A DNA stretch of 64,000 nt from Pseudomonadota bacterium (lineage in GTDB: Bacteria > UBA10199 > 2-02-FULL-44-16 > JAAZCA01): assembly GCA_043798915.1 (NCBI GenBank), contig JAZDOG010000090.1, positions 8,229 to 72,228 of the forward strand, given 5' to 3'. How positions within the stretch are numbered: position 1 is the stretch's first letter; each line of letters opens with the position of its first letter. The notes under the pieces are model-generated. The model saw only the letters and a program-made list of their open reading frames with translations. It was not told the origin of the DNA and did no database searches. This document shows, one piece after another, positions 2,873 through 38,071 of this stretch. The position numbers and the translations under genes were made by a program.

Positions 2873-4327
2873 ATGAAACAGGACCAGCTCGATATATTTG
2901 CTGTTGAAGCGCCTGAGGCGAAGCCGCCTGAGGGCGAGGCCCGGCCCAAGCGCGCGCGCAAACCGCGCGAGGTGAAGAAAGCGCCGTTCATTGTGGATTC
3001 GTATGCGCCGACAGAAGAGGTACAGCGAAAAACCGCAACCCCTCCCCTTTGTAAGGGGAGGATGGGTGGGGTAGATCAAGGTCTACCTCCCCTTGCCCCT
3101 CCTTACAAAGGAGGGGATGGGGTTCAGGAAGCGGTTTCAAAAAAAATTCTCACCGTCAGCGAGCTCACGGAGAGCATCAAGTCGCGCATCGAACCCTCCT
3201 TTACCGACGTCTGGGTCTCGGGCGAGGTCACGGATTTCAGGAACAGAACGGGCCGGCACTACTATTTCGCGCTCAAGGACGAGTCGAGCAAGATAAGGAT
3301 GGTCATCTTCGGCGCCGGCGAAGGCAAACGCGTCCCGTTCGAACTCAAGGATGGGATGGAGGTAATCTGCCACGGGAGCATGAACGTCTACGCGCCGCAG
3401 GGCAGCTATTCCGTCATCGTCGATGTCATCGAACCCAAGGGCATAGGCGCGCGGGAGCTCGCGTTCGAGCAACTCAAGAAGAAGCTCAAGGCAGAAGGAC
3501 TTTTCGCGCGCGAGCGCAAGCGGCCCTTGCCATATCTGCCGCGCAGGATCGGCGTCGTCACATCCGAGACCGGCGCTGCGATCCGCGACATCGTCCACGT
3601 CCTCACGCGCCGCTTTCCGAACATCGAGATACTCCTGCACCCTGTGCGCGTGCAGGGCGACGGCGCGGCCGCTGAGATCGCCGGGGCGATCGGCGCGATG
3701 AACTCCGTCGATGGCCTCGACCTCCTCATCGTCGGCCGCGGCGGCGGGTCGATCGAAGACCTCTGGGCGTTCAACGAGGAGATCGTCGCGCGGGCGATCG
3801 CCGCGTCGAAGCTGCCCGTGGTCTCTGCCGTCGGACATGAGATAGACTTCACGATCGCGGATTTCGTCGCCGATGTCCGCGCTGCGACGCCATCCGCTGC
3901 CGCCGAGATAGCCGTGCCGGTGCGAAGCGAGCTGCTGGCGAGGATTGCGGAGATGCGCCGGAGGCTGGCGCTTGCGCTGGAGCAGGGGATCGCCAATAGG
4001 TCCGGCGAACTCAAGAGGCTTGCCGAGCGCATCGGCGATCCGAGGAAGAAGCTCCCTGATTTCATGCTTCGCGTCGACGGCTTGCGCGAGAGGCTCGTGT
4101 TCGCGATGAACACTCACATGGACAGGCGGCAGCAAACCATAGCCAAGCTGGTCAGCAATCTCGACCACCTCTCTCCTCTCGGGGTCCTGTCAAAGGGGTA
4201 TTCCGTTGTGACCGGCAGCGACGGCTGCGCCGTCCGCGCCGCCGGGACCCTGAAGCCCGGCGACGATCTCAATATCCGCTTTCATAGCGGATCGGCCGCA
4301 GCCCGCGTGACTAAAGTCATCAATTAG
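2873..4327 (+). CDS. xseA: Exodeoxyribonuclease VII large subunit with N-terminal extension
   Basis: ILTVSEL, GHYYFALKD-like OB fold, GRGGGSIEDLWAFNEE, VGHEIDFTIADFVAD, ATPSAAAE; followed by xseB. Confidence 0.97.
   Translation: MKQDQLDIFAVEAPEAKPPEGEARPKRARKPREVKKAPFIVDSYAPTEEVQRKTATPPLCKGRMGGVDQGLPPLAPPYKGGDGVQEAVSKKILTVSELTESIKSRIEPSFTDVWVSGEVTDFRNRTGRHYYFALKDESSKIRMVIFGAGEGKRVPFELKDGMEVICHGSMNVYAPQGSYSVIVDVIEPKGIGARELAFEQLKKKLKAEGLFARERKRPLPYLPRRIGVVTSETGAAIRDIVHVLTRRFPNIEILLHPVRVQGDGAAAEIAGAIGAMNSVDGLDLLIVGRGGGSIEDLWAFNEEIVARAIAASKLPVVSAVGHEIDFTIADFVADVRAATPSAAAEIAVPVRSELLARIAEMRRRLALALEQGIANRSGELKRLAERIGDPRKKLPDFMLRVDGLRERLVFAMNTHMDRRQQTIAKLVSNLDHLSPLGVLSKGYSVVTGSDGCAVRAAGTLKPGDDLNIRFHSGSAAARVTKVIN
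3039..3116. repeat. Palindromic REP/BoxC-like element, family A, inside xseA
   Basis: cccctcccctttgtaagggg...gtaga...tctacc...ccttacaaaggagggg; homologous to the copies at 5524, 22198 and 26906. Confidence 0.9.
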
Positions 4328-4398: not shown

Positions 4399-4632
4399 AT
4401 GGCCGAACAAAAGAGGACCTTCGAGCAGTCCGCCTCTGATCTTGAGGCGATTGTCCGCCAGCTGGAAGGCGGCAGCCTCCAGCTCGATGATTCGCTCAAG
4501 GCCTTCGAGCGCGGCATCGGGCTCACTCGCGAGTGCGAGTTGCTTCTCAATGAGGCCAAGGCCAAGGTCGAAAAGCTGGTGCGAGATGCGGCAGGAGAGA
4601 TGAAAACAGAGCCGTTTGAACCAAAGGGGTGA
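4399..4632 (+). CDS. xseB: Exodeoxyribonuclease VII small subunit
   Basis: FEQS..DLEAIVRQLEGGSLQLDDSLKAFERGI pattern. Confidence 0.96.
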   Translation: MAEQKRTFEQSASDLEAIVRQLEGGSLQLDDSLKAFERGIGLTRECELLLNEAKAKVEKLVRDAAGEMKTEPFEPKG

Positions 4633-4640
4633 CGTCGAAC

Positions 4641-5522
4641 ATGGACCTCAAGTCGTATCTCAATGAGCGAAGGGAGCGGGTCGAAGGGGTGCTCAGCCGC
4701 TCGATCGGTGATAACGATATCCCGGAGACGCTCAGGCGCGCCATGAGCTACAGCCTCGAGGCTGGAGGGAAGAGGCTCCGCCCCATCCTCGTGATCGCTG
4801 GTGCAGAGGCAGTCGGGGGCGAAGAATCAAAAGTGATGCGCGCGGCAGTCGCGATGGAGATGATTCACACCTTCTCGCTCATCCACGACGACCTGCCCGC
4901 GATGGACGATGATTCGCTACGGCGCGGCAAACCCACGAACCACAAGGTCTTCGGCGAGGCCCAGGCTATTCTGGCCGGCGACGGCCTCCTCGCGGAGGCG
5001 TTCTATTTTCTCGCCAGCGACGGCAGCGGTTTGAATTCCGCCGCCCTGGTCGAAACGATTCGCGATATTGCAGCGGCCACCGGAGGAAGAGGGATGACCG
5101 GCGGCCAGGCGGTCGACGTCGAGGCGACAGGCAGGCAGGTGAAGGAGGAGGATCTCACCCGACTTCATCTCATGAAGACCGGCGCGCTCATCACCGCGTC
5201 CGTCACCGCCGGGGCGAGACTCTCCGGCGCATCGCGCGAGGAGATCGAATCGCTTGAAAGGTACGGAAAGGCGGTAGGCCTTGCCTTCCAGATCGCCGAC
5301 GACGTCCTCGATATCGAGGGGGATCAGACGGAGCTGGGAAAGGATGTCGGCAGCGACGTCTCCAAGGGCAAGTCGACCTATCCAGCCGTCATCGGCCTCG
5401 AGGCTTCAAAGAGGAAGGCGGCTTCGCTCGTCGACCAGGCGGTCGCGGCCCTGGCCCGTTTCGACAACCGCGCGGAGCCGCTGAGGCTGATCGCAAGATA
5501 TATTGTAGAAAGGAAAAACTGA
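4641..5522 (+). CDS. ispA: Farnesyl/geranylgeranyl diphosphate synthase
   Basis: GGKRLRP, SLIHDDLPAMDDDSLRRGKPT and FQIADDVLD motifs; alternative GTG start at 4629. Confidence 0.96.
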   Translation: MDLKSYLNERRERVEGVLSRSIGDNDIPETLRRAMSYSLEAGGKRLRPILVIAGAEAVGGEESKVMRAAVAMEMIHTFSLIHDDLPAMDDDSLRRGKPTNHKVFGEAQAILAGDGLLAEAFYFLASDGSGLNSAALVETIRDIAAATGGRGMTGGQAVDVEATGRQVKEEDLTRLHLMKTGALITASVTAGARLSGASREEIESLERYGKAVGLAFQIADDVLDIEGDQTELGKDVGSDVSKGKSTYPAVIGLEASKRKAASLVDQAVAALARFDNRAEPLRLIARYIVERKN

Positions 5523-5523
5523 T

Positions 5524-5621
5524 TTTCCCCTCCTTTGTAAGGAGGGGGAAGGGGAGGTAGATCAGGCGAGCTTTTCAAGGTCTACCCCACCCTGACCCTC
5601 CCCTTACAAAGGGGAGGGAAA
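5524..5621. repeat. Palindromic element, family A (opposite orientation to the xseA copy)
   Basis: tttcccctcctttgtaagg...ccttacaaaggggagggaaa, intergenic between ispA and yjbQ. Confidence 0.9.
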
Positions 5622-5648
5622 TGTCATTAGGTCCAGAATGACGAATAT

Positions 5649-6071
5649 ATGAAATCGTTCATCAGCGAGATAAAAATAGATACGAAGGGGCCCATCGAAT
5701 TTGTGGACATCACGGGCCGCGTGCGCAGCGCCTTTGAGGAGAGCGGCATCAGGGAGGGCCTGGTGACGGTCTTCACCAGTCACACGACCGCCGCCGTGAA
5801 GATCAACGAGCGATGCGACCGCCTGCAGGAGGATATGCTGGCGTTTCTTGAAAATGCGGTGCCGGCATCCAACTACAGGCACGATGAGGATACGGTCGAC
5901 AGCAGGGCGAACGCGAGGAGCCACCTCATGTCGCTCCTGCTCAACGCCTCGGAGACGGTGCCGGCCTCCGGCGGCAAGCTCATGCTCGGCACCTGGCAGA
6001 CGCTCTTCTTCATCGAGCTCGACGGTCCGCGAAGAGGGCGGAGCGTATCCGTGGGGATCATCGGAGAATGA
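5649..6071 (+). CDS. yjbQ: YjbQ/UPF0047 family protein
   Basis: HTTAAVKINE, NARSHL and LGTWQ..FFIELDGPR motifs. Confidence 0.93.
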   Translation: MKSFISEIKIDTKGPIEFVDITGRVRSAFEESGIREGLVTVFTSHTTAAVKINERCDRLQEDMLAFLENAVPASNYRHDEDTVDSRANARSHLMSLLLNASETVPASGGKLMLGTWQTLFFIELDGPRRGRSVSVGIIGE

Positions 6072-7462
6072 ATACAAACGAGATAAAGGGTTTTTTCGCC
6101 GACGAGGCCGCGATAGACCGCGATGTGCATGTGGTCTTCACCTACCTCATGGAGACTGCCATCGATCCGGCCGAGGCCGCGGCGAATCTCTGCCGCGAGA
6201 CCTCCACCGCGCAGTGGGCGAGGCCGGGCAAGGGCGAGGACTTCCGCCCCCGGTACGCTGCGAAGGTGTTGGATATAGAGATAGTCGATGAGACCGCCGT
6301 CTCGACTTTTGGCGCCGTTGAACCGGACGGCGGGCGGTTTGCCCGAGCGAGGGTGCGCATCGCGCATCCGTCCGGCAATTTCGGCGCGAGGATTCCCAAC
6401 CTGCTCACCGCGGCGATGGGCGAGGGCGCCTTTTTCTGCCACGGGGTGAGCGCGATCAAGCTCCTGGATATCTCGTTTCCGTCTCGTTACCTCGCCGATT
6501 TTCAGGGTCCGAAGTTCGGGACGGCCGGGATCCGCGAAATCCTCGGGGTTCAAGGTCGGCCGCTCTTCTTCGGCGTTGTGAAGCCGAACATCGGCCTCGA
6601 CCCGAAGAGCTTTGCCGATATCGCGCGGGAGGCGTGGCTTGGCGGGCTCGATGCTGCAAAGGATGACGAAATGCTCGCCGATCCGGATTACTCGCCCTTT
6701 GCGGAGAGGACGCGGCTGGTGGGACAGATGCGCCGCAATGCGGAGGAGGCGACCGGCGAGAGGAAGATGTTCATCGCCAACATCACCGACGAAGTGGAGA
6801 GGCTCAAGGAACTCCACGACATCGCCGTCGCAAACGGCATCAACGCGGTGATGGTGAATGCGATGGCGGTCGGCTTATCGGGCGTGCGGATGATCTGCAG
6901 ACATTCGACCGTGCCGGTGATCGGGCACTTCGACTGCATAGCCCCGATGTCGCGGCATCCCAACTTTGGCGTGAGCTCGTCGGTCTTCACTAAACTTCAG
7001 CGCATCTGCGGATGCGATGCGATAATCATGCCCGGCTTTGGCGCCAGGATGATGACGCCTGAGGAAGAGGTTCTGGTAAATGCCGCGGAGTGTTCAAATC
7101 CGCTCAGCCGCATCAAGGCGGCGCTTCCGGTGCCCGGCGGCAGCGATTGGGCGGGAACGCTTCCGCTCATGTACGAAAAGCTCAGGACGCACGACTTTGC
7201 GATGGTCCCCGGCCGCGGGGTGTTCGGGCATCCCAAGGGGCCGCGCGCGGGCGCCGCTTCCCTGAGGCAGGCCTGGGAGGCAATCGAGCAGAGGATAGAT
7301 CTCGCCGGTTATGCCGAGAGCCACAGGGAGCTGCGCGAGGCGATCGAGGCGTTCGGCGGGGAGTCAGAGAAAGTTTCTAGCGAGGGCGATGAGGGGTTGA
7401 AACCATACATCTGCGGGTTCACGGGAGCAGATCTCTCGTTCAATCGGAACGAACGGAATTAG
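6068..7462 (+). CDS. RuBisCO-like protein (form IV), resembling the Chlorobium IV-Photo RLP
   Basis: GVVKPNIGL, GLDAAKDDEM (carbamylation-site motif), ANITDEV, LPVPGGSD, VPGRGVFGHP.GP.AGA.SLRQAWEA. Confidence 0.93.
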   Translation: MNTNEIKGFFADEAAIDRDVHVVFTYLMETAIDPAEAAANLCRETSTAQWARPGKGEDFRPRYAAKVLDIEIVDETAVSTFGAVEPDGGRFARARVRIAHPSGNFGARIPNLLTAAMGEGAFFCHGVSAIKLLDISFPSRYLADFQGPKFGTAGIREILGVQGRPLFFGVVKPNIGLDPKSFADIAREAWLGGLDAAKDDEMLADPDYSPFAERTRLVGQMRRNAEEATGERKMFIANITDEVERLKELHDIAVANGINAVMVNAMAVGLSGVRMICRHSTVPVIGHFDCIAPMSRHPNFGVSSSVFTKLQRICGCDAIIMPGFGARMMTPEEEVLVNAAECSNPLSRIKAALPVPGGSDWAGTLPLMYEKLRTHDFAMVPGRGVFGHPKGPRAGAASLRQAWEAIEQRIDLAGYAESHRELREAIEAFGGESEKVSSEGDEGLKPYICGFTGADLSFNRNERN

Positions 7463-10037: not shown

Positions 10038-10796
10038 ATGCGAAAGGTTGCGATCGCCGCATATGTGGTGCTGTTTATGATGATATCGGGGGTTGCCGGG
10101 GCAGGGATTCCGCCGAAGATAGCCGCATCTGTCACCACCAACTATCCGGATGCTGACCCCCACAAGGGGCTCGACAGCGCTTACTTTCAGCCGGATCCGT
10201 CAAAGCTCCGCGGCTACGCCGTCCTCCTCAGGGGCGGGATCCCGGCCGAACGGGCCAGATATTTCGTCGGCTGGGACGACTACGACTATCGCGGCGTCGT
10301 CGTCCATCTGGGCGATGGCGACAAGGTGACGACGCGCCGAGGCGAGATATACACCTATCTCCAGCCTGGCACTGTGATGGTTGTGGCCGGAGTCAAGGAC
10401 TTCAACGGAACCATCTATTTCAGGCTCCTCTCCGCCGAGGTCTACATGCCGGAGAACAGGCAGGGCGAGAAGCACCATTCGCGTGTGACCGTGATGCTCG
10501 GCTTCAAACTTCCGAAGGAGCTGCTGGCCAAGGACGATGCCGAAGGGGTGCTCAAGGTGCTGGGCGAGTGGCTGAAACCCTTCCCGGATGCCGACAGCGC
10601 AAAGGCGTACGCTCTTTCGATGATACACAGCGCTGATAAGGCGAGCGGGGCCAAGCCCAAAGCGCCTGCCGTTGATGCTGCCCGGCCCGCCGATGCCGAG
10701 AAGATGAAAATCCTTGAGGACAAGATCGAGGCCGAAAAGAAAAAAATGGAGGAGATGGAAATAGAGATGAGGAAGATGAAGGAAGAGAAAAAATGA
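10038..10796 (+). CDS. Hypothetical secreted protein with coiled-coil C-terminus
   Basis: aggagg RBS, N-terminal signal peptide, K/E-rich tail. Confidence 0.75.
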   Translation: MRKVAIAAYVVLFMMISGVAGAGIPPKIAASVTTNYPDADPHKGLDSAYFQPDPSKLRGYAVLLRGGIPAERARYFVGWDDYDYRGVVVHLGDGDKVTTRRGEIYTYLQPGTVMVVAGVKDFNGTIYFRLLSAEVYMPENRQGEKHHSRVTVMLGFKLPKELLAKDDAEGVLKVLGEWLKPFPDADSAKAYALSMIHSADKASGAKPKAPAVDAARPADAEKMKILEDKIEAEKKKMEEMEIEMRKMKEEKK

Positions 10797-13933: not shown

Positions 13934-15256
13934 TTACTTCCTGCCTAGAAATCCATCCAGCACCGAGTTCAGGGTCGGCTCTCCCATCTCTTCGAGGTCG
14001 TAGCGAACGCGCATCATCGGTTTGTCGACGTCGATGACGCGGGAGAGGTCGATCGGGCTTCCGTTGAGGATGAGATCGCACGGCGTGGCCTTGATCGAGG
14101 TCTCCAGGTCTTTCAGCTGATCCTCATAATATCCGAGTGCGGGTATGAGCTTGCCGAGGTTCGGATATTTTACGTAGGCGTCCTTGATCGATCCCACGGT
14201 GAATGGTTTCGGGTCGACTATCTCCGCGGCGCCGAATTCATCGGCAGCCACCATCCCCGCGCCGAAGGTCATTCCGCCGTGAGTCAGCGTCGGGCCGTCC
14301 TCGATGACCAGCACGCGCTTTCCCTTCACAGCCGCCGGGTCATCGACCGTGAGCCTCGATGCCCCTTTGATCACCTTCGCATCCGGATTGCAGTGCTTGA
14401 TGTTGGCGAGGACCGTGTTCAGCTGCTCCGCGCTCGCCTGCTCGTACTTGTTGATGACCAGCACGTCCGCCGTGAGGAAGTTGGTCTCTCCCGGGTGGTA
14501 GCTGCGCTCGTGTCCGGCGCGCAAGGGGTCGAGCACCGTGATCTCGAGGTCGGGCTCCACGAAGGGCGTGTCGTTGTTGCCGCCGTCCCAGATGATGACA
14601 TCGGCCTCCTTCTCGGCCCGCCGCACTATCTCCTCGTAATCGACGCCGGCGTATACGACCAGCCCGTGGTCGATGTAGGGCTCGTATTCCTCGCGCTCTT
14701 CGATCGTGCAGTTGTGGCGGTCCATGTCGTCGTAACTCGCGAAGCGCTGCACGGCCTGTTCGGCTAGATCTCCGTACGGCATCGGATGGCGTATCGCCAC
14801 GACCTTCTTGCCGCGCTTCTTCAATAGCTCCACGATCTTCCTGGCCGTCTGGCTCTTCCCGCATCCCGTGCGTATCGCGCAGACCGAGATCACCGGGACC
14901 TGCGACTTGATCTGAGTGAATCGCGGCGAGAGCAGCGAGTAGTTGGCGCCGGCGGCCATGACCTGCGATCCCTTCTGCATGACATACTCGTGCGGCACGT
15001 CGCTGTAGGAGAAGACGACCTCGTCTATCTTCTCACGCTTGATGATGTCGGTTAGATCCTCTTCCGGATAGATCGATATGCCGCCGGGATAGTTCTTTCC
15101 CGAGAGCGCGGGCGGATACCTCCGCCCTTCGATGTTGGGGATCTGCGTCGCGGTGAACGCGACCACCTCGTAGAGGGGATTGTCGCGGAAATAGGTGTTG
15201 AAGTTATGGAAGTCGCGGCCCGCGGCCCCCATTATCAGAACGCGTTTTTTTGTCAT
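13934..15256 (-). CDS. COG2403 predicted GTPase (cyclic 2,3-diphosphoglycerate synthetase-like)
   Basis: IMGAAGRDFHNFN, RTGCGKSQT, RHPMPYG, IEEREEYEP, WDGGNND, EDGPTLTHG. Confidence 0.88.
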   Translation of the reverse strand: MTKKRVLIMGAAGRDFHNFNTYFRDNPLYEVVAFTATQIPNIEGRRYPPALSGKNYPGGISIYPEEDLTDIIKREKIDEVVFSYSDVPHEYVMQKGSQVMAAGANYSLLSPRFTQIKSQVPVISVCAIRTGCGKSQTARKIVELLKKRGKKVVAIRHPMPYGDLAEQAVQRFASYDDMDRHNCTIEEREEYEPYIDHGLVVYAGVDYEEIVRRAEKEADVIIWDGGNNDTPFVEPDLEITVLDPLRAGHERSYHPGETNFLTADVLVINKYEQASAEQLNTVLANIKHCNPDAKVIKGASRLTVDDPAAVKGKRVLVIEDGPTLTHGGMTFGAGMVAADEFGAAEIVDPKPFTVGSIKDAYVKYPNLGKLIPALGYYEDQLKDLETSIKATPCDLILNGSPIDLSRVIDVDKPMMRVRYDLEEMGEPTLNSVLDGFLGRK

Positions 15257-29027: not shown

Positions 29028-29312
29028 ATGAAAAATAAGACATCAGGTTTTGAACTTGCCAGGCAGTTCGGAATATCCCCGGGCCGGGGAATGGAGGCCG
29101 TCATCAAGGCTCAACTGATCTCCGCCATTCTCAAGGCGGTGAAAAAACACAAACTCACCCACTTGGAGCTGGCCCGGCGTTCCGGTTTGTCGCGGAGCGC
29201 CGTGACCGGCATCCTTTCCGGAAGCCTTCAAAAGGTCACGATTGACCGGGTGCTTCGGTTGGCCGAGGCCGCAAACCTCGAAGCGGAGGTGAGGGTGAAA
29301 GATGCCGCATAA
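29028..29312 (+). CDS. XRE/HigA-like antitoxin, orphan
   Basis: LTHLELARRSGLSRSAVTGILSGSLQKVTIDRVL HTH; no intact toxin gene upstream. Confidence 0.82.
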   Translation: MKNKTSGFELARQFGISPGRGMEAVIKAQLISAILKAVKKHKLTHLELARRSGLSRSAVTGILSGSLQKVTIDRVLRLAEAANLEAEVRVKDAA

Positions 29313-29328
29313 CGCAGTGATGGCTGAC

Positions 29329-30480
29329 ATGTTTCGCACAAAACTCGCAGCAGCCACTCTTGTCATATCGTCAATGCTATTTCTGCTGTTTTTCGTTCTA
29401 TCAGCCAATGCTGCATCTGACGTCGAAGATGAATTTGTCAGGTTAACAACAGAACAGATCACATTGATTTGGGAACATACCTGCATGAAGCACATGGAAA
29501 AAGGAGAATGGCATCAAGCGCGCCAAAACAAGAAAGCCATCGATTGGCAGCGAGCAAATAAGAAGGGGATCGATATCAGTGGAAAGGATATGCCTGCCGA
29601 GCTGCAATACTTCGAGGAAGCTCGCATAGCAAAGGCTAAGGCGGGGGAGAAATGGGGCTGCAATCCCCCAGAGGCGAAATTGGAGCTTAGGCTTCTCAAG
29701 ATAGGGCGGGATCCGCAAATAGAATCTCCGATCACAACCGGTTTTGTTTCCAGCGATGCCGACGCAGTTGAGGTACGTGCAGCGGCGGAAATTGTTTCCG
29801 ATTGCGATTCTCCACGCCTTATATGGTTTTTTTCGATTCCGAAATATGGCGCAAATAAATCGTACAGCGATGAGAAAACGATCAGCCACCGGCAATCGAT
29901 TCCACCTGCGCCGGGTGGCGATAGAGGCAAGGATTTTAATGTCGAGGTTAAAGCGGAACTGTCCTGTAAAGGAATTTTGGCTGACAATCTGAATTGTGCC
30001 GTTGGACAGGATGAGAAGGATCAATTGCGTCAGGAATATATCGACATGAAAAAGGCAATGACGCCGGCGCGAGAGGATCTTACATCCGTCGGCAATTCAA
30101 AGCATTTCAGTTTTGATGATTTTAACCGCAGCATGAACGCTTCCGGAGAAAAGTATCCATACATCCTTTGCAGGATATTGGACAGGTTGGAAGCGGTCAA
30201 GGTGAGAGCTGGAGCTGCCCCGATGGCGATAAACAGCGGGTTCAGGAATCCATATAAAAATGGAAAGACGCCGGGCTCGGGGCGCGAAAGTATGCATATT
30301 TACGGACTTGCAGCGGATATCGCTCTGGATGATTTTAATGAGGATGGCAAGAGAGATGAAGATGACTGGAAGCTTATGGCCAGGGCTGCGAGGGCGGAAG
30401 GCGCCTGCGTTGAGCCGATAGCAATGGCGCCGTCATGGGTTCATATGGACTGGCGAGGGACTTGCCCCAATGGTTGGTAA
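29329..30480 (+). CDS. Secreted peptidase M15A-family zinc peptidoglycan hydrolase
   Basis: Signal peptide; INSGFR, SMHIYGLAADI (SxH...D) and WVHMDWR motifs. Confidence 0.85.
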   Translation: MFRTKLAAATLVISSMLFLLFFVLSANAASDVEDEFVRLTTEQITLIWEHTCMKHMEKGEWHQARQNKKAIDWQRANKKGIDISGKDMPAELQYFEEARIAKAKAGEKWGCNPPEAKLELRLLKIGRDPQIESPITTGFVSSDADAVEVRAAAEIVSDCDSPRLIWFFSIPKYGANKSYSDEKTISHRQSIPPAPGGDRGKDFNVEVKAELSCKGILADNLNCAVGQDEKDQLRQEYIDMKKAMTPAREDLTSVGNSKHFSFDDFNRSMNASGEKYPYILCRILDRLEAVKVRAGAAPMAINSGFRNPYKNGKTPGSGRESMHIYGLAADIALDDFNEDGKRDEDDWKLMARAARAEGACVEPIAMAPSWVHMDWRGTCPNGW

Positions 30481-30492
30481 ATGGAGAGGCAA

Positions 30493-31299
30493 ATGAAAAA
30501 GAAATCTCTGCTCTTCTTTCTATCTCTTTTGCTTGTTTTAACGGCCACCGGATGTAAAGCCTCGGTTAACAAAGCAAAAGAGAGAGATGCCGGCAGACAA
30601 TTGCTTTCTGAAGATTGGAAAGTACGCGAAAGCGGAATACATATTCTAGCAAACATCGAGGACAATAATTACAAAATAAATAAGGATACGCAGGATGTCC
30701 TGATAAATCTCATAAAAAACGAGACTCAAACGTTTAATAATTTTCAGGGTGAACTGAGATCGACTGGAAAATCAGATAATCAGATTTACCATGAAACATA
30801 TAACAGATTTCCTCCGCAGACATACGGAGATTATATTAAAGCCCTTGTTTATTTCACCGCATCAAAAAATATCGGGGAAAGCCTGCCGGCAATATTTCAG
30901 CTTATCGCAGACACGGATTATAATATAACCCCTGCAATTCTTACTATGTATGGAAAAACGCACCTGGATTTTTTTATCGAAAAGGCATCGGTTGGAGCAA
31001 TTAAGGAACGGAAAATTGCGATGAGCGCCTTGGGCGTTTTGGCTGATCCATCAATTGAATCAGATGATTTTGATATGAGTCTGACTCCGCAACTCAGCGG
31101 GCTGGAAAAGGAAAAAATAAGGTTGGTCCTCATGAAAGCCGCAAAAGATGCTGATGCAAATATCAGATCATTGTCTTTATTTGGCCTCAGGGCATTTATG
31201 GCAGAACCCGATGTAAGAAAACTAATAAGCGAAATTGCAATTTCTGATAAAGATGAGGGCGTTCGAGATGACGCCCGGAGATTGTTGAATCGGAATTGA
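30493..31299 (+). CDS. HEAT-repeat lipoprotein, candidate immunity protein
   Basis: MKKK...LTATGC lipobox; DADANIRSLSL and DKDEGVRDDARRLL HEAT motifs; AT-rich. Confidence 0.75.
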   Translation: MKKKSLLFFLSLLLVLTATGCKASVNKAKERDAGRQLLSEDWKVRESGIHILANIEDNNYKINKDTQDVLINLIKNETQTFNNFQGELRSTGKSDNQIYHETYNRFPPQTYGDYIKALVYFTASKNIGESLPAIFQLIADTDYNITPAILTMYGKTHLDFFIEKASVGAIKERKIAMSALGVLADPSIESDDFDMSLTPQLSGLEKEKIRLVLMKAAKDADANIRSLSLFGLRAFMAEPDVRKLISEIAISDKDEGVRDDARRLLNRN

Positions 31300-31326
31300 G
31301 AATTCGGCAATTCTGGGGAGACATTT

Positions 31327-31405
31327 AGGGTTAAATGGTGGAAAAGTGGCGCTAGGGATGCATTGCGAACGGCGTCTGCGACCTTCCGAAAAAGCCACTT
31401 TTCCA
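31327..31405. repeat. Inverted-repeat element, family D (short copy, opposite orientation)
   Basis: tggaaaagtggc...gccacttttcca; 31327-31378 is an imperfect reverse complement of 28823-28874. Confidence 0.75.
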
Positions 31406-31517
31406 ATTTTACGCAGCTGCATCCTTTTGCTGCAGTCTGCACAGAAATGCAGCACCCCCATCAGACATTTCACCACGTTGGTTCTTTTGATTTCAACAAG
31501 ATAGGCGCGCGCAGCCG

Positions 31518-31534
31518 TTGGCATGCTTTGTGCT
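31518..31534 (+). promoter_or_regulatory. Sigma54 -24/-12 promoter
   Basis: TTGGCATGCTTTGTGCT with GG-N10-GC; palindrome tgctgca-N13-tgcagca at 31428-31454 is a possible enhancer. Confidence 0.6.
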
Positions 31535-31546
31535 TAGGCATGAAGC

Positions 31547-34500
31547 ATGAAAATAAAATGGCTGGCTGTGGCTGCTCTGATTTCCTTAAACATAATTTCT
31601 GCCGACACGTTCGCGTCCGATGGCGCCGGCGCGGCGCTCTCGCAGGCCTTCCAGATGGACGGCGTTGCTGGTTTTGTGGGGGGGCGCGCGCAGGAGGCGA
31701 TCAAAACAGCTATCACACAGCATGGCGCGGACTGGCTCTGCGGCGCCTTCGCAAAGGCGTCAAACGCGCTCCGCCGCGGCGGGGCGCTCAATTCCCTCCA
31801 ACAGGATCCGGAACTCAAGGCGGCGGTGCAGGCGGAGCTCAAAAATAAAATCAAGGAGTGGCTGCCGGGCGCGGTGAAGGATCTCGTCGTCGGCGACATC
31901 TTTGGCGGCGCAATAGGCAAGGAACATCTGGCTGAGGTGGATGCCATCTCTGGCCGCGTGATGAAGGAGATCGACACGAGCCTGAACGACAAGATCGACG
32001 AGGTGGCGGGCGGCATGTACGACAGGGCGGTCGGCGAACTCCAGAGGCTCTCGGCGGTCGGCAGCGTGCCCGCGTGGGTCGACGCCACGGATATCAAGAA
32101 GACGATCAGCCGCGCCTTTGACACCGGAACCATAGCCGGTGCGGTTGCCGGGCAGCTGGGGCAGGTTGTCGGCGATGCGACTGTCTCCGGCATCCGCGGG
32201 AGGATCTCTGACGCCCTGAGCGGTCAGCTCCCGCCGGAGGCGATCGCGGCGCTGGAAAAGGGGCCGGCAGAGTTCGACAAATATATTTCGAAGGCTGAAG
32301 GCTTTCTGCCCGGCAACAAACTCAAGGACCTCACGGATTCCATCCTCAACAAGCCGCTGATAAGACTTCCCACTCCGGCATATGCGGCGATCCTCGGCGC
32401 CACGGCCGCTGGCCATTTTGCCAAGGCCTACAAGGGCACCGTCGTCGATCCCTATGAGCTCAAGCGCGGCATCGAGGTGACGAACGTGATGGTCTGGCAG
32501 CTCGAGAACAAACAGTACATCGCGCTCACGTTGATGCAGCTCGGGAGCCTCGAGGGCGGGCTCGCGGCGAGCCTTGGGTTGGGGGCCTCGTTCGACGGCA
32601 TTATGTCGAAGATCCGCGCGCCGCTCGAGAGGATCAAGAAGCTGGCCGACAATATCGACAAGCTGGTCATGAAGCCGGCCAAAGAAATATCCGCAGAGCT
32701 CAGGGGCGCTACCGATGAGATGAAGGCGGAGCTCGCGAAGCTCCAGGATGAGATCATGGGGCCGGTGAAGGAGAACCTGGCGAAGATCAAAGAGGGCCTG
32801 GGCGAGGCGGCCGATACGATCTCCGGCGCGATCCCCGATGAATTGAACGGCATTCCCGAATCGTTGGAGGAGTTAAAGCAGAGGGCAAGCGTCGATGGCG
32901 GGCTGCTCGGCAAGGCTGGCGACTGGAAGCCGGGCGACGCGCTTGAGGAGATCGCGAAGAGGGCGGGCCTGGGCGGTGCGGCGAAGAAGGTGAAAAAGGA
33001 CCTCTCGGACTTAAACGATGCGGTCGCGGACAAGCTTTCGAAGGGGGCCTCCGGCGTGCTCGACGCGCTTCACATCACAGGCCCGGCCGCAAAAATTATG
33101 GATACGGAGAAGATCCCGGCGAAGGATGTGTCGGAATCGAAAGAGCTCGATCCGGTGTTGCTACACAATGGGGAGTTTACGCAAGAGGTGACCGACCTCG
33201 TGATACCGGGGCGCGGGATCGATTTCCGCTTCACGCGCATCTATCGGAGCCGCTCGAAGTTCCTCGGGGAGTTCGGCTTCAACTGGACGCACTCGTATGC
33301 CGAGAGGCTCCTTCCGTGGAACGACGGCACCGCAGACGGGTTCACGCACATAGATGCGCAGGGGCGCAAGTTCTTCTTCCGTTCAGAAGGCGATGGCTTC
33401 ATCTTGCCGCCGGGCATGGATGCGCGCCTCGTGCGCGCCGAGTCGGGAGGGTATGAGTTGCAATCGCGCGACGGATCGGTCGCTGTCTTCGACGATCAGG
33501 GCAGGCTTGCCGAAAGGCGCGATCGCAACGGCAACTCCGTTAAACTCCTCTATAATGATACAGGGCTCGTCTCTTCGATCGTTGATTCATACGGCCGGGG
33601 CGTGAAGATAGAGAGGAGAAAAGACGGCCTCGTGAGCCGGATGACAGACTTCGCGGGCCGGACCTTCTCCTACGAATATAACGATGCCCGGGAACTCATC
33701 GGCGTCACGGCGCCGGCCACCCCGGATTTTCCCAAGGGCAAGACCACGGCATACCGGTACGCGCGCGTCGCTCTAGAGGCCCCCGATGCGCACGCACTTA
33801 CGATGATCATGGACCCGAATGGCCGCGTCTATCTGAGAAATCGATACGATGAGGAGGGGCGCGTCGTCGGCCAGAGCTACGGCGAAGGGCCTTGGATGGG
33901 AGTCGTCTATGCTGCCGGTTCAGGCAATGTGGCCTCTCGCGCGTGGGTGACTGATGCCAGGGGGATCATGCGCCTCTATGAGCACGACGCGGATGGGCAC
34001 CTCCTGCGCCTGTGGCGCTATGGAGGCGCTGAATACCGCCTTCTGTCGTCGCACGCATATAATGATAGAGGTGAGAAGGTCGCCACGTGCACGCCCTCCG
34101 GGCGCTGCACGCACTTCGCATATGGCGAGGGCCCGTCCCGCGGCGATGTCGTCCGCGTGGAGGAGCATCCGTCGGGGGGCGGCGCTGCGCGCGTGATGAG
34201 GATCGAGCGGGAGGCGCGATACGGCCTGCCATCGTCGGTGATCGATCCAGCCGGCGGGGAGAGCAGGTTCGAATACGACGAGCGCGGCAATATAGCGTCG
34301 GTTGCGCGCTGCGCGAAAGAGGGCGAGGGCTGCGCCGTCCATTCGAGGTTTCAGTACAACGGCTGCGGTCAGATCGCGAGCAAAACGGACGGCCGCGGCG
34401 TTGCAACGCACTATGAATACTTCCAATCATCTGATCCAGACGGCGACGGCGTGCCGGTCAAGGGGGCCCCCGCCGCAGGTTCTGCGTGCGGTTATCCCAA

Positions 34501-37500
34501 ACGCATCGTCGTCGATGCGGAGGGAGGGCCGGACAGGCATGCGGTCGGCGCGCCTCTGGCCAGGGCGACGTCTTTCTCCTACGACCCGATAGGCAATATC
34601 ACCTCCGTCACTGGGCCGGACGGCGCGGCCTCGCGCTATCGCGTGAACGCCCTGAACCAGATCGCCCGCGAGGAGATCCCCGGCTTTGCGCCGCGTGAAT
34701 ATGGCTTCGATGCCAACGACAATATGGTGAAGGTGAAGATCCTGATGGATAAGAGGACCGTCGTCCATGAGTTTGCGTACGACGTCCTCGACAGGCCGGC
34801 TTCTGAGAAGTGGCAGGTATCAAAGGGGAGGTCGATCGAGACGCGATATGTCTACGACGCGGCCGGCCTCCTTGTGAAGGTTGCGCATCCCGAGGGAGGC
34901 GAGGAGGCCTACGAATACGATGATGATGGGAGGGTCCTCTGCGTTGTGCGCGGCGCAAACTCGCTCGAGCAGGCGCGCGAGTGCGTCGAACGGAATGTCG
35001 ATGGCGATGTCGTGGCGCGGATCGACGGCGAGGGCGCCAGAACGACCCTCGAACTCAACGGCTTTGGCGAGGTGGCAGCTGAGATCGATCCGCTCGGTAA
35101 CAGGGTTGAGTACGAGCGCGATACCGCAGGCAAGATCGTAGGCGAACGCCGGATGGATCCGGCTAAAAAAATCCTGGCCGAGTCGCGGTTTGAATACGAC
35201 GCGAGCGGCAATGTCATCAAATATGGCGGTAAGCTGTGGCGTGACGATCCGGGGAATGCGGTCTGGGTGGACGAACTTAGCAAGTACGATCCGGCGGGGA
35301 ATCTGGCCGCAGTGATCGACAGGTCCGGAGAACAGACGATGATCGACCGCGACGGCCTCGGCGAAATAGTCTCGGTGAGGCGGCCCTCGGGCAGATTGAG
35401 GAACTTCGTGCGTGACGCGGCGGGCCGCGTGGCGGAATCGTACATTCGGTCCGGCGACAGCAGGCTGGATGAGAAGAGGTTTTCGTACGACGCGGCCGGG
35501 CGGGTTGCCGGCGTGAACGCAGGCCGTGACGAGAACTGGGTCTACCGCTATGACGGGATGGGGAACCTCGCATCGATCGTTGATCCATACGGCGTCGAGG
35601 CCGCATATGAGCTGGACGACCTCGGCAGACCTCTCGCGCTGGTCCGTGACTCAAAAGGTTTGAGGGCGACAACGCGGTACGAATGGGATGGCGACGGCAG
35701 ACTTGTATCCCTGACAGATCCCAACGGAGGCGCCACGCGGTTTTCATACAACGCCCAGGGCAGTCTCGTGGCGGAGCGCTATGCCGACGGGACCGAGCGC
35801 CGCACTGCCTACGACCGAGCCGGACGCGTTGTGGCCGTGGTCGACAGGAACGGCACCGTCCTCGACATCGAGCATGACGCCGCCGGCAGGTTGCTGTCGC
35901 GCCGCGCCTCGTCGCTGACGGGCGTCATCGGGACGCACGGGCAGAGCTTTGAATACGACGGTTTGGGAAGGATCGTCGCGGCCGTCGACTTCAACGATGC
36001 CGATGACCCCGGCGATGACGTCGTCTCGCGCTTCGTCTACGATTCGCTCTCCCGCCCCGTCGCCGAGGCGCAGAACGACAGATGGATCCTGCGCGAGTTC
36101 AACGGGGCTGGACTGGCGGTGGCAACGGCGCTGCCCTCCGGCAGGAGGCTTTATCTGGCGCGAAATCCGGAAGGAAAAGTGGGTGCCGTGATGGACGGCG
36201 GCAGGGGCATAGCTTCTTTTGAATATGACGGCGCGGGAAATCTCGCTGGGGGCAGGTTTGGCGGCGGGATCCGCTTCATCGCCGAGCGCGACGCGCGGGG
36301 GTATCCGACCGAACTCAAGTACGAGAGCCCGGCAGGCAAGTGGCTCGCCGGCTCGAAGATCGAGTACGACGGAAAGGGGCGCGTCGCCGGCGAATCGACG
36401 TATGCCGGCATAACGAGACGTTATTCTCGCGATTCGCTGGCCAGGCTTACAGAGGTGAAGGAGAGCGACAGCTACTACTACGAGGGCGAAGGCGCTCCGC
36501 GCCGCAGGTCGTGGCGGTACGACTACGATGCCGCGGGCAATCTCAAGACTGCGCAGGAGGGGAGATATCTCCTCGAGTTCACCGCGAATCAGCTCAATGA
36601 ATATACGGGCCTCGTCCACAGGTTCATGTCGAAGGATGGATCGCATGTGACCCGGGACGAAAAGGACCCGGCGGACAGCTTTGCCTACGACGCTGCGGGA
36701 AATCTCGCGACGGACAGCACGCGCCAGCTGGGGCCTCGCGAGTATCGGTACGACGCCTTCGGCCGCCTTTCCGCGATCTGGCGCGGTGCGGCCTTCCGCG
36801 CCACAAAGACGGGATACAAATATGATGCTTTCGACCGGCTCATCGCGAAGGAGGTCCAGGGCGAGAGAGATGATTTCATCTGGGACGGGTGGCGTCTCGC
36901 CGAGGAGCGCCGTGGCGGAAAGCTCTTTGCCGACTACGTCCATGTCGACGGGATGGAGGCCCCCGTCGCGGCCATCGGGGATGGCTGGGAGAAATTTCTG
37001 TTCGCTGACCGCATAGGCTCCGTGGTCGCCGTGGCCGACGGGGAGGGGAGTCTCGCTGCGCGCTGCGACTACAGCCCTGCGGGCCGGCCGATCTCCGTGA
37101 TGCTCTCCGGAAGGCCCGGCGCTGCGGCAGATGAGGAGTTTGCGGATTGCGCCGAAAATTCGATACCGTTCGGCTTTGCCGGCCACCCCTACGACTACGG
37201 CCATGAGCTCTCCTACATGAGGCACCGGTTCTACAGCGCGAAGCTCGAGCGCTTCATCTCGCCGGATCCCCTTGGATACAAGGTGCCGCTTGATGCCGAT
37301 GCAAGCGCTTCCATTGCGCCTGCTCTCTCGTATCATCGGGGGCAGGGCGCTGCGTCGCGCGCGACAATTCCAAATCGATCGCTGTCGATGGCGTCGGCTG
37401 GTTACGATGCCTATCCCTTCGGCCGGATATTTGCCCGGTCGCGGGCGCCGTTCGAAGGCGGCGAGACGAATCTCTACCAGTACGGCAGCTCCGATCCGAC

Positions 37501-38071
37501 GACGTTTGTGGATCCCATGGGGCTCTCGAGCCTCGTCTTCGACAGATCGGACAACCGGATGACGCTCTACGACGGCAAGGGGAGGGATATCACTAAATTC
37601 GACGCCTCGAACATCGCCGTGGATGGGCACGCGCCGTTTGCCAGTGGCACGTATCAGGTCGGCGTTCCGGAGTTCTACTCATATGATTATCGCGATGCGC
37701 TTTATAAACGCTTCGGGTTCGGCATTCCCGGCGGAGATGACGAGAGCAAGGTCACGGGGCCGTTATATGAAATCACCGCGGGCGGGAAGAGGGTGAGAAT
37801 TCAGGGTTGGGATGGAGATGATGTCGGCGGAAACTACAACATCTCCCAGGGAAGGATTCGCTTCCGGGCCGGGGCGAGCGGCATGGACGCCGCCAATCTG
37901 AATGCGTGGAACCGAGAGATCTTCATCCACGGCGGGCGCTCGGGCAATTACAAGTACCCGACCCACGGCTGCATCAGGGGAGAGGACCTGCAGCTCGAAA
38001 TCCTCGCCGCCGATTTCATAGAACTCCGCCGCGAAAATGATCCGGTGGGGACGCTGACGGTGAGGGAGTGA
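31547..38071 (+). CDS. RHS/YD-repeat polymorphic toxin with signal peptide and C-terminal L,D-transpeptidase-like (Tlde1-like) domain
   Basis: DPVLLHNGEF..FTRIYRS..FGFNW (DUF6531-like), many YD repeats, RFYSAKLERFISPDPLG..NLYQY..DPTTFVDPMGL core end, IHGG...THGCIR tip. Confidence 0.92.
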   Translation: MKIKWLAVAALISLNIISADTFASDGAGAALSQAFQMDGVAGFVGGRAQEAIKTAITQHGADWLCGAFAKASNALRRGGALNSLQQDPELKAAVQAELKNKIKEWLPGAVKDLVVGDIFGGAIGKEHLAEVDAISGRVMKEIDTSLNDKIDEVAGGMYDRAVGELQRLSAVGSVPAWVDATDIKKTISRAFDTGTIAGAVAGQLGQVVGDATVSGIRGRISDALSGQLPPEAIAALEKGPAEFDKYISKAEGFLPGNKLKDLTDSILNKPLIRLPTPAYAAILGATAAGHFAKAYKGTVVDPYELKRGIEVTNVMVWQLENKQYIALTLMQLGSLEGGLAASLGLGASFDGIMSKIRAPLERIKKLADNIDKLVMKPAKEISAELRGATDEMKAELAKLQDEIMGPVKENLAKIKEGLGEAADTISGAIPDELNGIPESLEELKQRASVDGGLLGKAGDWKPGDALEEIAKRAGLGGAAKKVKKDLSDLNDAVADKLSKGASGVLDALHITGPAAKIMDTEKIPAKDVSESKELDPVLLHNGEFTQEVTDLVIPGRGIDFRFTRIYRSRSKFLGEFGFNWTHSYAERLLPWNDGTADGFTHIDAQGRKFFFRSEGDGFILPPGMDARLVRAESGGYELQSRDGSVAVFDDQGRLAERRDRNGNSVKLLYNDTGLVSSIVDSYGRGVKIERRKDGLVSRMTDFAGRTFSYEYNDARELIGVTAPATPDFPKGKTTAYRYARVALEAPDAHALTMIMDPNGRVYLRNRYDEEGRVVGQSYGEGPWMGVVYAAGSGNVASRAWVTDARGIMRLYEHDADGHLLRLWRYGGAEYRLLSSHAYNDRGEKVATCTPSGRCTHFAYGEGPSRGDVVRVEEHPSGGGAARVMRIEREARYGLPSSVIDPAGGESRFEYDERGNIASVARCAKEGEGCAVHSRFQYNGCGQIASKTDGRGVATHYEYFQSSDPDGDGVPVKGAPAAGSACGYPKRIVVDAEGGPDRHAVGAPLARATSFSYDPIGNITSVTGPDGAASRYRVNALNQIAREEIPGFAPREYGFDANDNMVKVKILMDKRTVVHEFAYDVLDRPASEKWQVSKGRSIETRYVYDAAGLLVKVAHPEGGEEAYEYDDDGRVLCVVRGANSLEQARECVERNVDGDVVARIDGEGARTTLELNGFGEVAAEIDPLGNRVEYERDTAGKIVGERRMDPAKKILAESRFEYDASGNVIKYGGKLWRDDPGNAVWVDELSKYDPAGNLAAVIDRSGEQTMIDRDGLGEIVSVRRPSGRLRNFVRDAAGRVAESYIRSGDSRLDEKRFSYDAAGRVAGVNAGRDENWVYRYDGMGNLASIVDPYGVEAAYELDDLGRPLALVRDSKGLRATTRYEWDGDGRLVSLTDPNGGATRFSYNAQGSLVAERYADGTERRTAYDRAGRVVAVVDRNGTVLDIEHDAAGRLLSRRASSLTGVIGTHGQSFEYDGLGRIVAAVDFNDADDPGDDVVSRFVYDSLSRPVAEAQNDRWILREFNGAGLAVATALPSGRRLYLARNPEGKVGAVMDGGRGIASFEYDGAGNLAGGRFGGGIRFIAERDARGYPTELKYESPAGKWLAGSKIEYDGKGRVAGESTYAGITRRYSRDSLARLTEVKESDSYYYEGEGAPRRRSWRYDYDAAGNLKTAQEGRYLLEFTANQLNEYTGLVHRFMSKDGSHVTRDEKDPADSFAYDAAGNLATDSTRQLGPREYRYDAFGRLSAIWRGAAFRATKTGYKYDAFDRLIAKEVQGERDDFIWDGWRLAEERRGGKLFADYVHVDGMEAPVAAIGDGWEKFLFADRIGSVVAVADGEGSLAARCDYSPAGRPISVMLSGRPGAAADEEFADCAENSIPFGFAGHPYDYGHELSYMRHRFYSAKLERFISPDPLGYKVPLDADASASIAPALSYHRGQGAASRATIPNRSLSMASAGYDAYPFGRIFARSRAPFEGGETNLYQYGSSDPTTFVDPMGLSSLVFDRSDNRMTLYDGKGRDITKFDASNIAVDGHAPFASGTYQVGVPEFYSYDYRDALYKRFGFGIPGGDDESKVTGPLYEITAGGKRVRIQGWDGDDVGGNYNISQGRIRFRAGASGMDAANLNAWNREIFIHGGRSGNYKYPTHGCIRGEDLQLEILAADFIELRRENDPVGTLTVRE

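Follow-up and report, generated by a model that had tools for sequence, protein, structure and literature searches.

A gene pair encoding YjbQ and a RuBisCO-like protein holds the dxs position in a dxs-less bacterial genome and may belong to a route to deoxyxylulose phosphate

A yjbQ-RLP pair follows ispA in a genome in which dxs was not found

We analysed a 64,000-nucleotide stretch of a bacterial genome of the GTDB lineage UBA10199 (contig JAZDOG010000090.1 of assembly GCA_043798915.1, positions 8,229 to 72,228; hereafter the window), in which a gene for a YjbQ (UPF0047) protein is followed by a gene for a RuBisCO-like protein (RLP) of the IV-Photo type. The two close the gene order xseA-xseB-ispA-yjbQ-RLP (Table 1), in which the 3' end of xseB overlaps the start of ispA by 4 nt and, as the initial annotation of the locus had reported, yjbQ and the RLP gene share an ATGA overlap (their open reading frames, or ORFs, have positions 6068-6071 in common). 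A promoter and terminator scan of the locus gave matches at chance level only. The palindromic repeat between ispA and yjbQ lies outside the proposed pathway; a second copy stands at 3040-3117, in frame within the 5' part of xseA.

Table 1. Features of the xseA-to-RLP locus (window coordinates)
Feature	Position	Strand	Description and basis
xseA	2873..4327	+	Exonuclease VII large subunit; PF02601 330 bits; heads the xseA-xseB-ispA cluster
xseB	4399..4632	+	Exonuclease VII small subunit, 77 aa; named by likeness to relatives' xseB ORFs (no family scan)
ispA	4629..5522	+	Farnesyl diphosphate synthase; NF045485 378 bits (cut-off 275)
Palindromic genome-wide repeat	5524..5630	.	Between ispA and yjbQ; 110 blastn hits on 43 contigs; hairpin -63 kcal/mol
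yjbQ/UPF0047	5649..6071	+	140 aa; RLP-linked subfamily; family profiles and residues
IV-Photo RLP	6068..7462	+	464 aa; structure-relative search, tree, active-site residues

In E. coli the order is xseB-ispA-dxs-yajO, with dxs directly after ispA, and ispA-dxs-tlyA is the order in other lineages. Across 48 RLP loci of the source genome's class (a set that omits G011, where the pair is adjacent, and G020, where contig ends split it), ispA lies at most 900 nt upstream of the RLP gene in 44, and tlyA follows in 12 of the 48. The yjbQ-RLP pair occupies the dxs position in a genome with a dxs-less methylerythritol phosphate (MEP) pathway, a point that the initial annotation had missed. In this genome dxr and ispG score over cut-off, ispD, ispF and ispH were found by tblastn and an IspE-like protein by motif; dxs was not found in the 97% complete assembly, and no HMG-CoA reductase motif was seen, mevalonate genes having been checked by short motifs alone. 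With Dxr and IspD to IspH present and Dxs not found, the genome falls within the dxs-less MEP pathways defined in the accessible text of PMC10663253, a survey that counts 181 species whose MEP pathway is short of Dxs alone, 172 of them without a candidate mechanism. Also present are thiG, thiH and thiC together with a ThiE homolog.

Of 41 class genomes, 40 have a dxr over cut-off and eight a dxs; in an enlarged set of 65, dxs is over cut-off in 13 and absent in 52 (dxr was not run on all of these, and three of three spot checks were positive). At six class loci inspected, dxs is not near ispA; several of these loci are set among polysaccharide genes, and the surroundings at L135, L136, L137 and L140 are often polysaccharide-synthesis or mobile-looking genes. 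This context suggests re-acquisition of dxs.

The pair also meets isoprenoid genes at a second position. Ca. Thiodictyon carries puf-idi-yjbQ-RLP facing crtB/crtI, with a 4-nt overlap between yjbQ and the RLP gene, and idi adjoins the pair in 18 of 80 metagenome loci; on the photosynthesis plasmid of Sulfitobacter, one of two such plasmids checked, dxs lies between puf and idi. A puf-linked ORF of 625 aa (L357:4989-6863) reads as an RLP-Idi fusion, which we did not use as evidence: no such fusion occurs among 120 listed homologs, and at a locus of 95% identity the two genes are separate.

The RLP belongs to the IV-Photo clade

Among the best 60 of 99 matches to RuBisCO-family proteins of solved structure, the closest relatives of the RLP are 1tel/1ykw (E 1e-160), which we take to be the Chlorobium tepidum RLP, and 2qyg (E 7e-151); 3nwr follows at 1e-65, a gap of about 85 orders of magnitude in E. 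RLP2 of Rhodopseudomonas palustris, which is of the 2qyg type, has been placed in the Photo clade (PMC5893883). In a FastTree phylogeny of 54 rows, with three long-branch outgroups only, no DeepYkr row and an uncertain root, the window RLP and the Chlorobia RLPs fall together in a node of 45 rows (support 99) that excludes MtnW, OiaX and form II, and the phototroph RLPs appear as a subclade nested in a broader non-phototroph set. The window RLP is about 55% identical to the Chlorobia RLPs and has active-site substitutions in common with them. It retains K172, K198, D200, E201 and H287 (its own numbering), with F288 and I320 at the distal phosphate site; mapped onto the form II row, the KDDE metal site and H294 are retained, and N123E, K177N, R295F, H327I, S379G and G403R are as in Chlorobia. 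With R295 and H327 exchanged for apolar residues, the distal pocket is apolar.

No NCBIfam equivalog cut-off is exceeded. The carboxylating forms I, II and III gave 234, 218 and 145 bits against cut-offs of 497, 438 and 489, and the form I-III residues N123, K177, R295, H327 and S379 are exchanged. For MtnW (IV-YkrW) the scores were 165 against 513.6 (TIGR03332) and 197 against 409 bits (NF007095), identity to an annotated MtnW is 29%, and the class RLP loci inspected have no mtnB or mtnX neighbours; OiaX of the apiose pathway (NF042437) gave 265 bits against 700. By sequence, then, the window RLP, the sole RLP match in its genome, is a member of the IV-Photo clade. The initial annotation had said as much from motifs, all of which are found in the translation, and had named membership of an MtnW-type clade as the result that would overturn it; the phylogeny groups the protein with Chlorobia, and the MtnW cut-offs are missed.

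It had also thought an IV-Photo RLP in an apparent non-phototroph worthy of note. The reading of the host holds, in that pufL, pufM, bchY, bchZ and bchF had no match in the genome, which is 97% complete (a search that did not extend to type I reaction-centre genes), but IV-Photo RLPs of non-phototrophs had already been published from Parcubacteria and Micrarchaeota (PMC6389311), and the yjbQ-RLP pair occurs in other bacteria, in archaea and in phototrophs too. For the reaction of RLP2, PMC5893883 calls for further work, and the accessible text of PMC13001223 adds nothing on RLPs. A deeper-branching RLP, 36% identical, is found in G064 (L219:3911-5245), where the locus is unrelated and includes a gene resembling nucleotidyltransferases.

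YjbQ forms a dedicated subfamily that the RLP can do without

yjbQ lies directly upstream of the RLP gene in 38 of the 48 class loci, in all five Planctomycetota loci, in 52 of 71 determinable metagenome loci (near-duplicates included) and in none of 64 Chlorobia loci; eight of nine Micrarchaeota RLP genomes have the pair. A 4-nt overlap is the commonest spacing (15 of 55 pairs, start codons having been set by heuristic), and gaps reach 190 nt. This adjacency is not due to chance. The initial annotation would have been refuted by a pairing confined to one genome, and the neighbourhood survey found it conserved.

The window YjbQ scores over the cut-offs of PF01894 (124 bits; cut-off 27) and TIGR00149 (123 bits; 67.75), retains H45, T47, E54, D62, H78, N88 and H92, the family's conserved His/Glu/Asp set, and has the same predicted fold as the family, which was also the only family returned from a protein atlas. 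UPF0047 proteins presumably bind metal. In a tree built by a quick method from 85 UPF0047 rows (some 35 mostly weak matches left out), 44 RLP-adjacent copies and the copy of G020 form a single clade (SH-aLRT 96) that spans bacteria and one archaeon, the other 40 rows falling outside. The subfamily bears the motif D84-x-R86 and, in this tree, is never seen without an RLP. Cys56 occurs in 34 of 52 sequences and no Cys is invariant, so a Cys-dependent mechanism was rejected. A YjbQ-RLP fusion was sought as well: three of 399 candidates are longer YjbQ homologs, none with an RLP domain, a weak negative. Two further UPF0047 loci were seen in passing, a divergent paralog without the conserved histidines (L132:3864-4316) that has counterparts in many class genomes, and a Micrarchaeon row of dxr, two other YjbQ-like genes and ispH (L296:1014-3812) that gives a second link between UPF0047 and the MEP pathway.

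That YjbQ is a thiamine-phosphate synthase, tied to the RLP through thiamine metabolism only or by chance, is very improbable. The TIGR00149 family name and a low-level activity cited in PMC3010111 point that way, but the same paper says that the activity is not thought physiological, the source genome has a ThiE homolog, and the subfamily does not occur apart from an RLP in the tree.

Nine genomes (G015, G017, G019, G021, G025, G032, G033, G063 and G069) hold an RLP in the same place without a linked YjbQ; dxs is over cut-off in none of them, G019 and G021 being 81-83% complete. Because these dxs-less genomes keep the RLP without YjbQ, the gene content argues that YjbQ is an accessory to the RLP route, and a dispensable one. 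Of the undescribed two-step pathway that the initial annotation had proposed, the shared undescribed pathway survives and the obligate unit does not, given these nine genomes and the 64 Chlorobia loci.

Two Zn-dehydrogenases take the place of the RLP

In 21 of the 65 class genomes the place of the RLP is taken by Zn-dehydrogenases, here called A and B. RLP alone is found in 44 genomes, A alone in 19, both in one and neither in one, and all 52 dxs-less genomes are accounted for by an RLP (36) or the dehydrogenase pair (16). In the first set A was present in 7 of 8 RLP-negative genomes, the miss being 80% complete, and in 0 of 33 RLP genomes. Mutual exclusion was then predicted beforehand for 30 new genomes and held in 28, A being present in 12 of 13 RLP-negative genomes and absent in 16 of 17 RLP-positive ones. 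Both misses were explained after the fact: in G064 the RLP is divergent and off-slot and A follows ispA, and G072 has ispA-lsrF-dehydrogenase B plus dxs. RLP and A swap within four families (within-family permutation p 0.002, kin inside families being treated as exchangeable), and G023 and G038 differ in system within one genus.

The dehydrogenases adjoin ispA in 13 of 21 carriers (A in 8, B after ispA in 4, and G072). Elsewhere an lsrF-B-A cluster lies off-slot and the RLP is still missing, which argues that the exclusion is more than physical overwriting. Representative loci are L124:7152-8234, L142:1507-4009, L232:5773-8714 and L396:2889-5811, often with lsrF; A and B are paralogs that match no equivalog, and LsrF is over its cut-off. 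LsrF as a partner of the RLP itself was rejected for the class (0 of 33 RLP genomes vs 4 of 8 RLP-negative ones, at the query's threshold), and lsrK, lsrG and lsrF were not found in the source genome.

Because two oxidoreductases can replace nothing else, the RLP reaction would be a redox-neutral isomerisation. The substrate of LsrF is annotated in E. coli as 1-deoxy-2,4-diketo pentose 5-phosphate, a diketone that LsrF cleaves to acetyl-CoA and dihydroxyacetone phosphate (DHAP); by structure, reduction of one of its carbonyls yields 1-deoxyxylulose 5-phosphate (DXP) and of the other 5-deoxyribulose 1-phosphate (dRu1P). The dehydrogenases with LsrF are a candidate second bypass of Dxs, from acetyl-CoA and DHAP.

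Two alternatives bear directly on this exclusion. The RLP might feed DXP from ribulose 5-phosphate or ribulose 1-phosphate: enolisation followed by elimination would give a deoxy-diketone for a separate reductase to reduce, with YjbQ perhaps tautomerising the diketone as LsrG does. Such a route would have a de novo flux, elimination is a side reaction of RuBisCO and RibB, and the LsrF and the short-chain dehydrogenase/reductase (SDR) beside the Chlorobia RLP fit it; two dehydrogenases, however, replace the RLP but cannot replace a dehydratase, in the class the pair is not accompanied by a reductase, and the distal pocket is apolar, all of which makes it quite unlikely. Alternatively, the RLP might only dispose of pentulose phosphates that derive from nucleosides, either to detoxify them or to salvage ribose as ribulose 5-phosphate or xylulose 5-phosphate, DXP coming from a divergent or promiscuous thiamine diphosphate (ThDP) enzyme and the dxs position being a relic of a one-time insertion. 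The many carriers that hold both RLP and dxs, a divergent transketolase in the source genome, and the existence of E. coli dxs suppressors in aceE (PMC3424233) favour disposal, yet it leaves unexplained why three unrelated gene sets (RLP, dehydrogenase A, LsrF with B) lie beside ispA, the independent idi position, and why none of the 52 dxs-less genomes lacks both systems. We consider it unlikely.

A candidate route from 5'-deoxyadenosine to DXP

Gene identities, positions and the pattern of presence and absence are what was observed, and from them we infer every reaction that follows. Position and exclusion together indicate that the RLP very probably supplies DXP in place of Dxs. Radical-SAM enzymes would release 5'-deoxyadenosine, which MtnP would convert to 5-deoxyribose 1-phosphate and MtnA in turn to dRu1P; the RLP would then shift the carbonyl from dRu1P to DXP through two enediol steps, with no sulfur to remove, and Dxr would take DXP onward. 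In relatives without an RLP, the two Zn-dehydrogenases could bring about the same net reaction through the diketone 3-hydroxy-2,4-pentanedione 5-phosphate (P-HPD), which LsrF could also link to acetyl-CoA and DHAP. For dRu1P as the RLP substrate, isomerised to DXP, the gene content tips the balance slightly in favour.

The source genome has a methylthioadenosine (MTA) phosphorylase, MTAP (TIGR01694, 326 bits; cut-off 275), MtnA (TIGR00512, 442 bits; cut-off 279) and 32 ORFs with a radical-SAM motif; MtnA occurs in 39 of 41 class genomes and MTAP in 4 of 4 tested. The initial annotation was right that no methionine-salvage or sugar-acid genes adjoin the pair in the window, but this holds locally only, since mtnA and mtnP lie elsewhere in the genome. 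Formation of dRu1P by a phosphorylase, or by a kinase, followed by an isomerase is established, and MtnA-type isomerases yield it (PMC6079011). The apolar residues found in the RLP in place of R295 and H327 also speak for this substrate. MTAP adjoins a PfkB-family kinase gene in the source genome (L394:943-2734) and in a Micrarchaeon (L299:5119-6899).

In Micrarchaeota these genes come together with the pair. Of nine RLP genomes, four have mtnA adjacent and two mtnP, both over family cut-offs, the scanned copies being MtnA (not ribose-1,5-bisphosphate isomerase) and MTAP. The arrangements are yjbQ-RLP-mtnA facing mtnP and a ribokinase gene (G150), yjbQ-RLP-unknown-mtnA-mtnP on one strand with the RLP split in two frames (G178), mtnA-yjbQ-RLP (G237) and a divergent mtnA (G049). 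Among six RLP carriers tested, dxr was found in four, one of them partial, and dxs in none; a sentence of PMC12892359 that admits two readings states that these archaea acquired most MEP genes except dxs. In Chlorobia the printed loci (e.g. L037:2814-8147) show an operon of an aldolase-SDR fusion, lsrF, RLP and SDR without yjbQ, near bchF in some, and the genomes also carry MtnA and dxs.

A known pathway comes close. In the MTA-isoprenoid shunt of Rhodospirillum rubrum and Rhodopseudomonas palustris, MtnP, MtnA, a DeepYkr RLP acting as 1,3-isomerase and a cupin methylsulfurylase lead to DXP, and the route proposed here resembles it in its MtnP and MtnA, the proposed 1,3-carbonyl shift by an RLP, its product and its small partner gene. 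With the methylthio analogue as substrate, DeepYkr RLPs carry out this shift and give xylulose and ribulose forms at 3:1; Photo RLP2 showed none of it, apart from traces in earlier work (PMC5893883). The same shunt with its parts swapped is a rival: the RLP would turn methylthioribulose 1-phosphate (MTRu-1P) into methylthioxylulose 5-phosphate, and YjbQ would replace the cupin in releasing DXP and methanethiol. This would be the genuine two-step pathway first envisaged, mtnP and mtnA cluster with the pair, and YjbQ stands in the partner enzyme's place, travels with the RLP and has its putative metal site intact, with Cys56 in 34 of 52. Several findings stand against it, and we rate it as improbable: neither in vitro nor in vivo could activity on MTRu-1P be detected for the Photo RLP2 of R. 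palustris (PMC5893883), nine dxs-less genomes hold an RLP without linked YjbQ, YjbQ has no invariant Cys, the UPF0047 copies examined in five dehydrogenase genomes (none of them a held-out one) include no RLP-linked YjbQ, and in the source genome no SpeD was found and a SpeE-domain protein is below cut-offs. No cupin methylsulfurylase lies beside the RLP in the window; no genome-wide search was made.

The isomerisation of dRu1P to DXP would need no demethylthiolase, which would explain why YjbQ can be lost. YjbQ could be a metal-site accessory enzyme that clears or epimerises a ribulose-configured by-product, or one that widens the input to MTA. By-product repair or epimerisation is a doubtful assignment, but the best of those considered; a role as cupin analogue is somewhat less likely, as is some other role to the same degree, and that of an aldol feeder is less likely again.

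Several findings weigh against the proposed route. Nine of the 45 class genomes with an RLP have dxs too, so a strict anticorrelation was rejected; both genes are also present in 5 of 5 Planctomycetota and in 3 of 3 Chlorobia, so outside the class the RLP would be at most a supplement. The second photosynthesis plasmid checked, that of Roseinatronobacter, has no dxs beside idi. The source genome encodes a transketolase-family ThDP enzyme (L393:4196-6499; 768 aa or more) that could make DXP; it is divergent, far below all cut-offs and the only such protein seen there. No dxr was seen in two of the six Micrarchaeota carriers, and one of five RLP-negative controls has it, in small assemblies of unstated completeness. 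None of the 80 metagenome loci holds mtnA, mtnP or dxr, and in the class these genes are unlinked to the RLP. In aerobic B. thuringiensis the flux through 5-deoxyribose was considered low (PMC6079011), perhaps too low for a sole source of DXP. A class II aldolase feed was seen in 2 of 5 genomes and was rejected as a general one, and no LsrF was found in the source genome. The genomes compared are kin, and the metagenome loci include near-duplicates.

Relation to known systems

The proposed route works like the MTA-isoprenoid shunt without being one, because its RLP belongs to another clade: a Photo RLP (inactive on MTRu-1P in R. palustris), a dispensable YjbQ instead of a cupin and a proposed sulfur-free substrate set it apart, and it would probably be the main DXP source of dxs-less cells, whereas the known pathway is a side shunt. 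Its RLP is like the other IV-Photo RLPs (1TEL/1YKW, 2QYG, R. palustris RLP2) in identity, substitutions and clade, and unlike those of Chlorobia in its non-phototrophic host and yjbQ neighbour, the Chlorobia operon having aldolase-SDR, lsrF and SDR genes. With the DHAP shunt, or DrdK-DrdI-DrdA 5-deoxyribose salvage (PMC6079011, PMC10986504), it has the conversion of 5'-deoxyadenosine to dRu1P in common; there an aldolase cleaves dRu1P to DHAP and acetaldehyde, whereas here it would be isomerised intact. A 2024 discussion of that salvage lists no isoprenoid tie-in for 5'-deoxyadenosine in its accessible text. With autoinducer-2 catabolism by LsrG and LsrF it has in common LsrF and its diketone P-HPD, met beside the Chlorobia RLP and the substitute dehydrogenases, although the link here is to ispA and not to autoinducer-2 uptake, and the source genome yielded no lsrK, lsrG or lsrF. 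YjbQ is like its family in profile scores, residues and predicted fold and unlike it in its separate clade, its D84-x-R86 motif and its occurrence beside RLPs only.

No publication joining RLP with YjbQ, or 5'-deoxyadenosine with DXP, was found in the open-access literature, outside which the primary RLP papers lie; as far as this search shows, the locus gives a YjbQ subfamily its first pathway context. The presence-absence pattern names candidate enzymes, a substrate and a second, analogous route for the dxs-less gap, and makes both this gap and the IV-Photo RLP reaction directly testable. If the route exists, a ThDP-independent supply of DXP would also serve thiazole synthesis and would let terpenoid engineering circumvent the first step, which is under feedback control. 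A wider proposal, which we put forward tentatively at slightly less than even chances, is that all IV-Photo RLPs, orphan enzymes since 2001, are dRu1P-to-DXP isomerases turning radical-SAM waste into an isoprenoid and thiamine precursor. They would be the main DXP source in the class and in some archaea, where Dxs was lost or never present, and would boost the supply in phototrophs. A second route without thiamine, as yet unreported, would be interchangeable with them: the two Zn-dehydrogenases, with LsrF making DXP from acetyl-CoA and DHAP.

Other genes of the window

The gene at 10038-10796 has no Pfam match; its homologs lie close downstream of the RLP gene in 23 related loci (some duplicates), and in the window inserted genes set it apart. 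A P-loop protein gene at 13934-15256, with a weak cobW match only, is of a type found near the RLP gene in 11 class loci (some duplicates) and, as L302:10201-11517, two genes away from it in a Micrarchaeon; we take the protein to resemble cyclic 2,3-diphosphoglycerate synthetase. Farther downstream, at 29302-38071, a 2174-aa protein that reads by sequence as RHS/YD-repeat-like is preceded by peptidase-like and HEAT-repeat-like ORFs.

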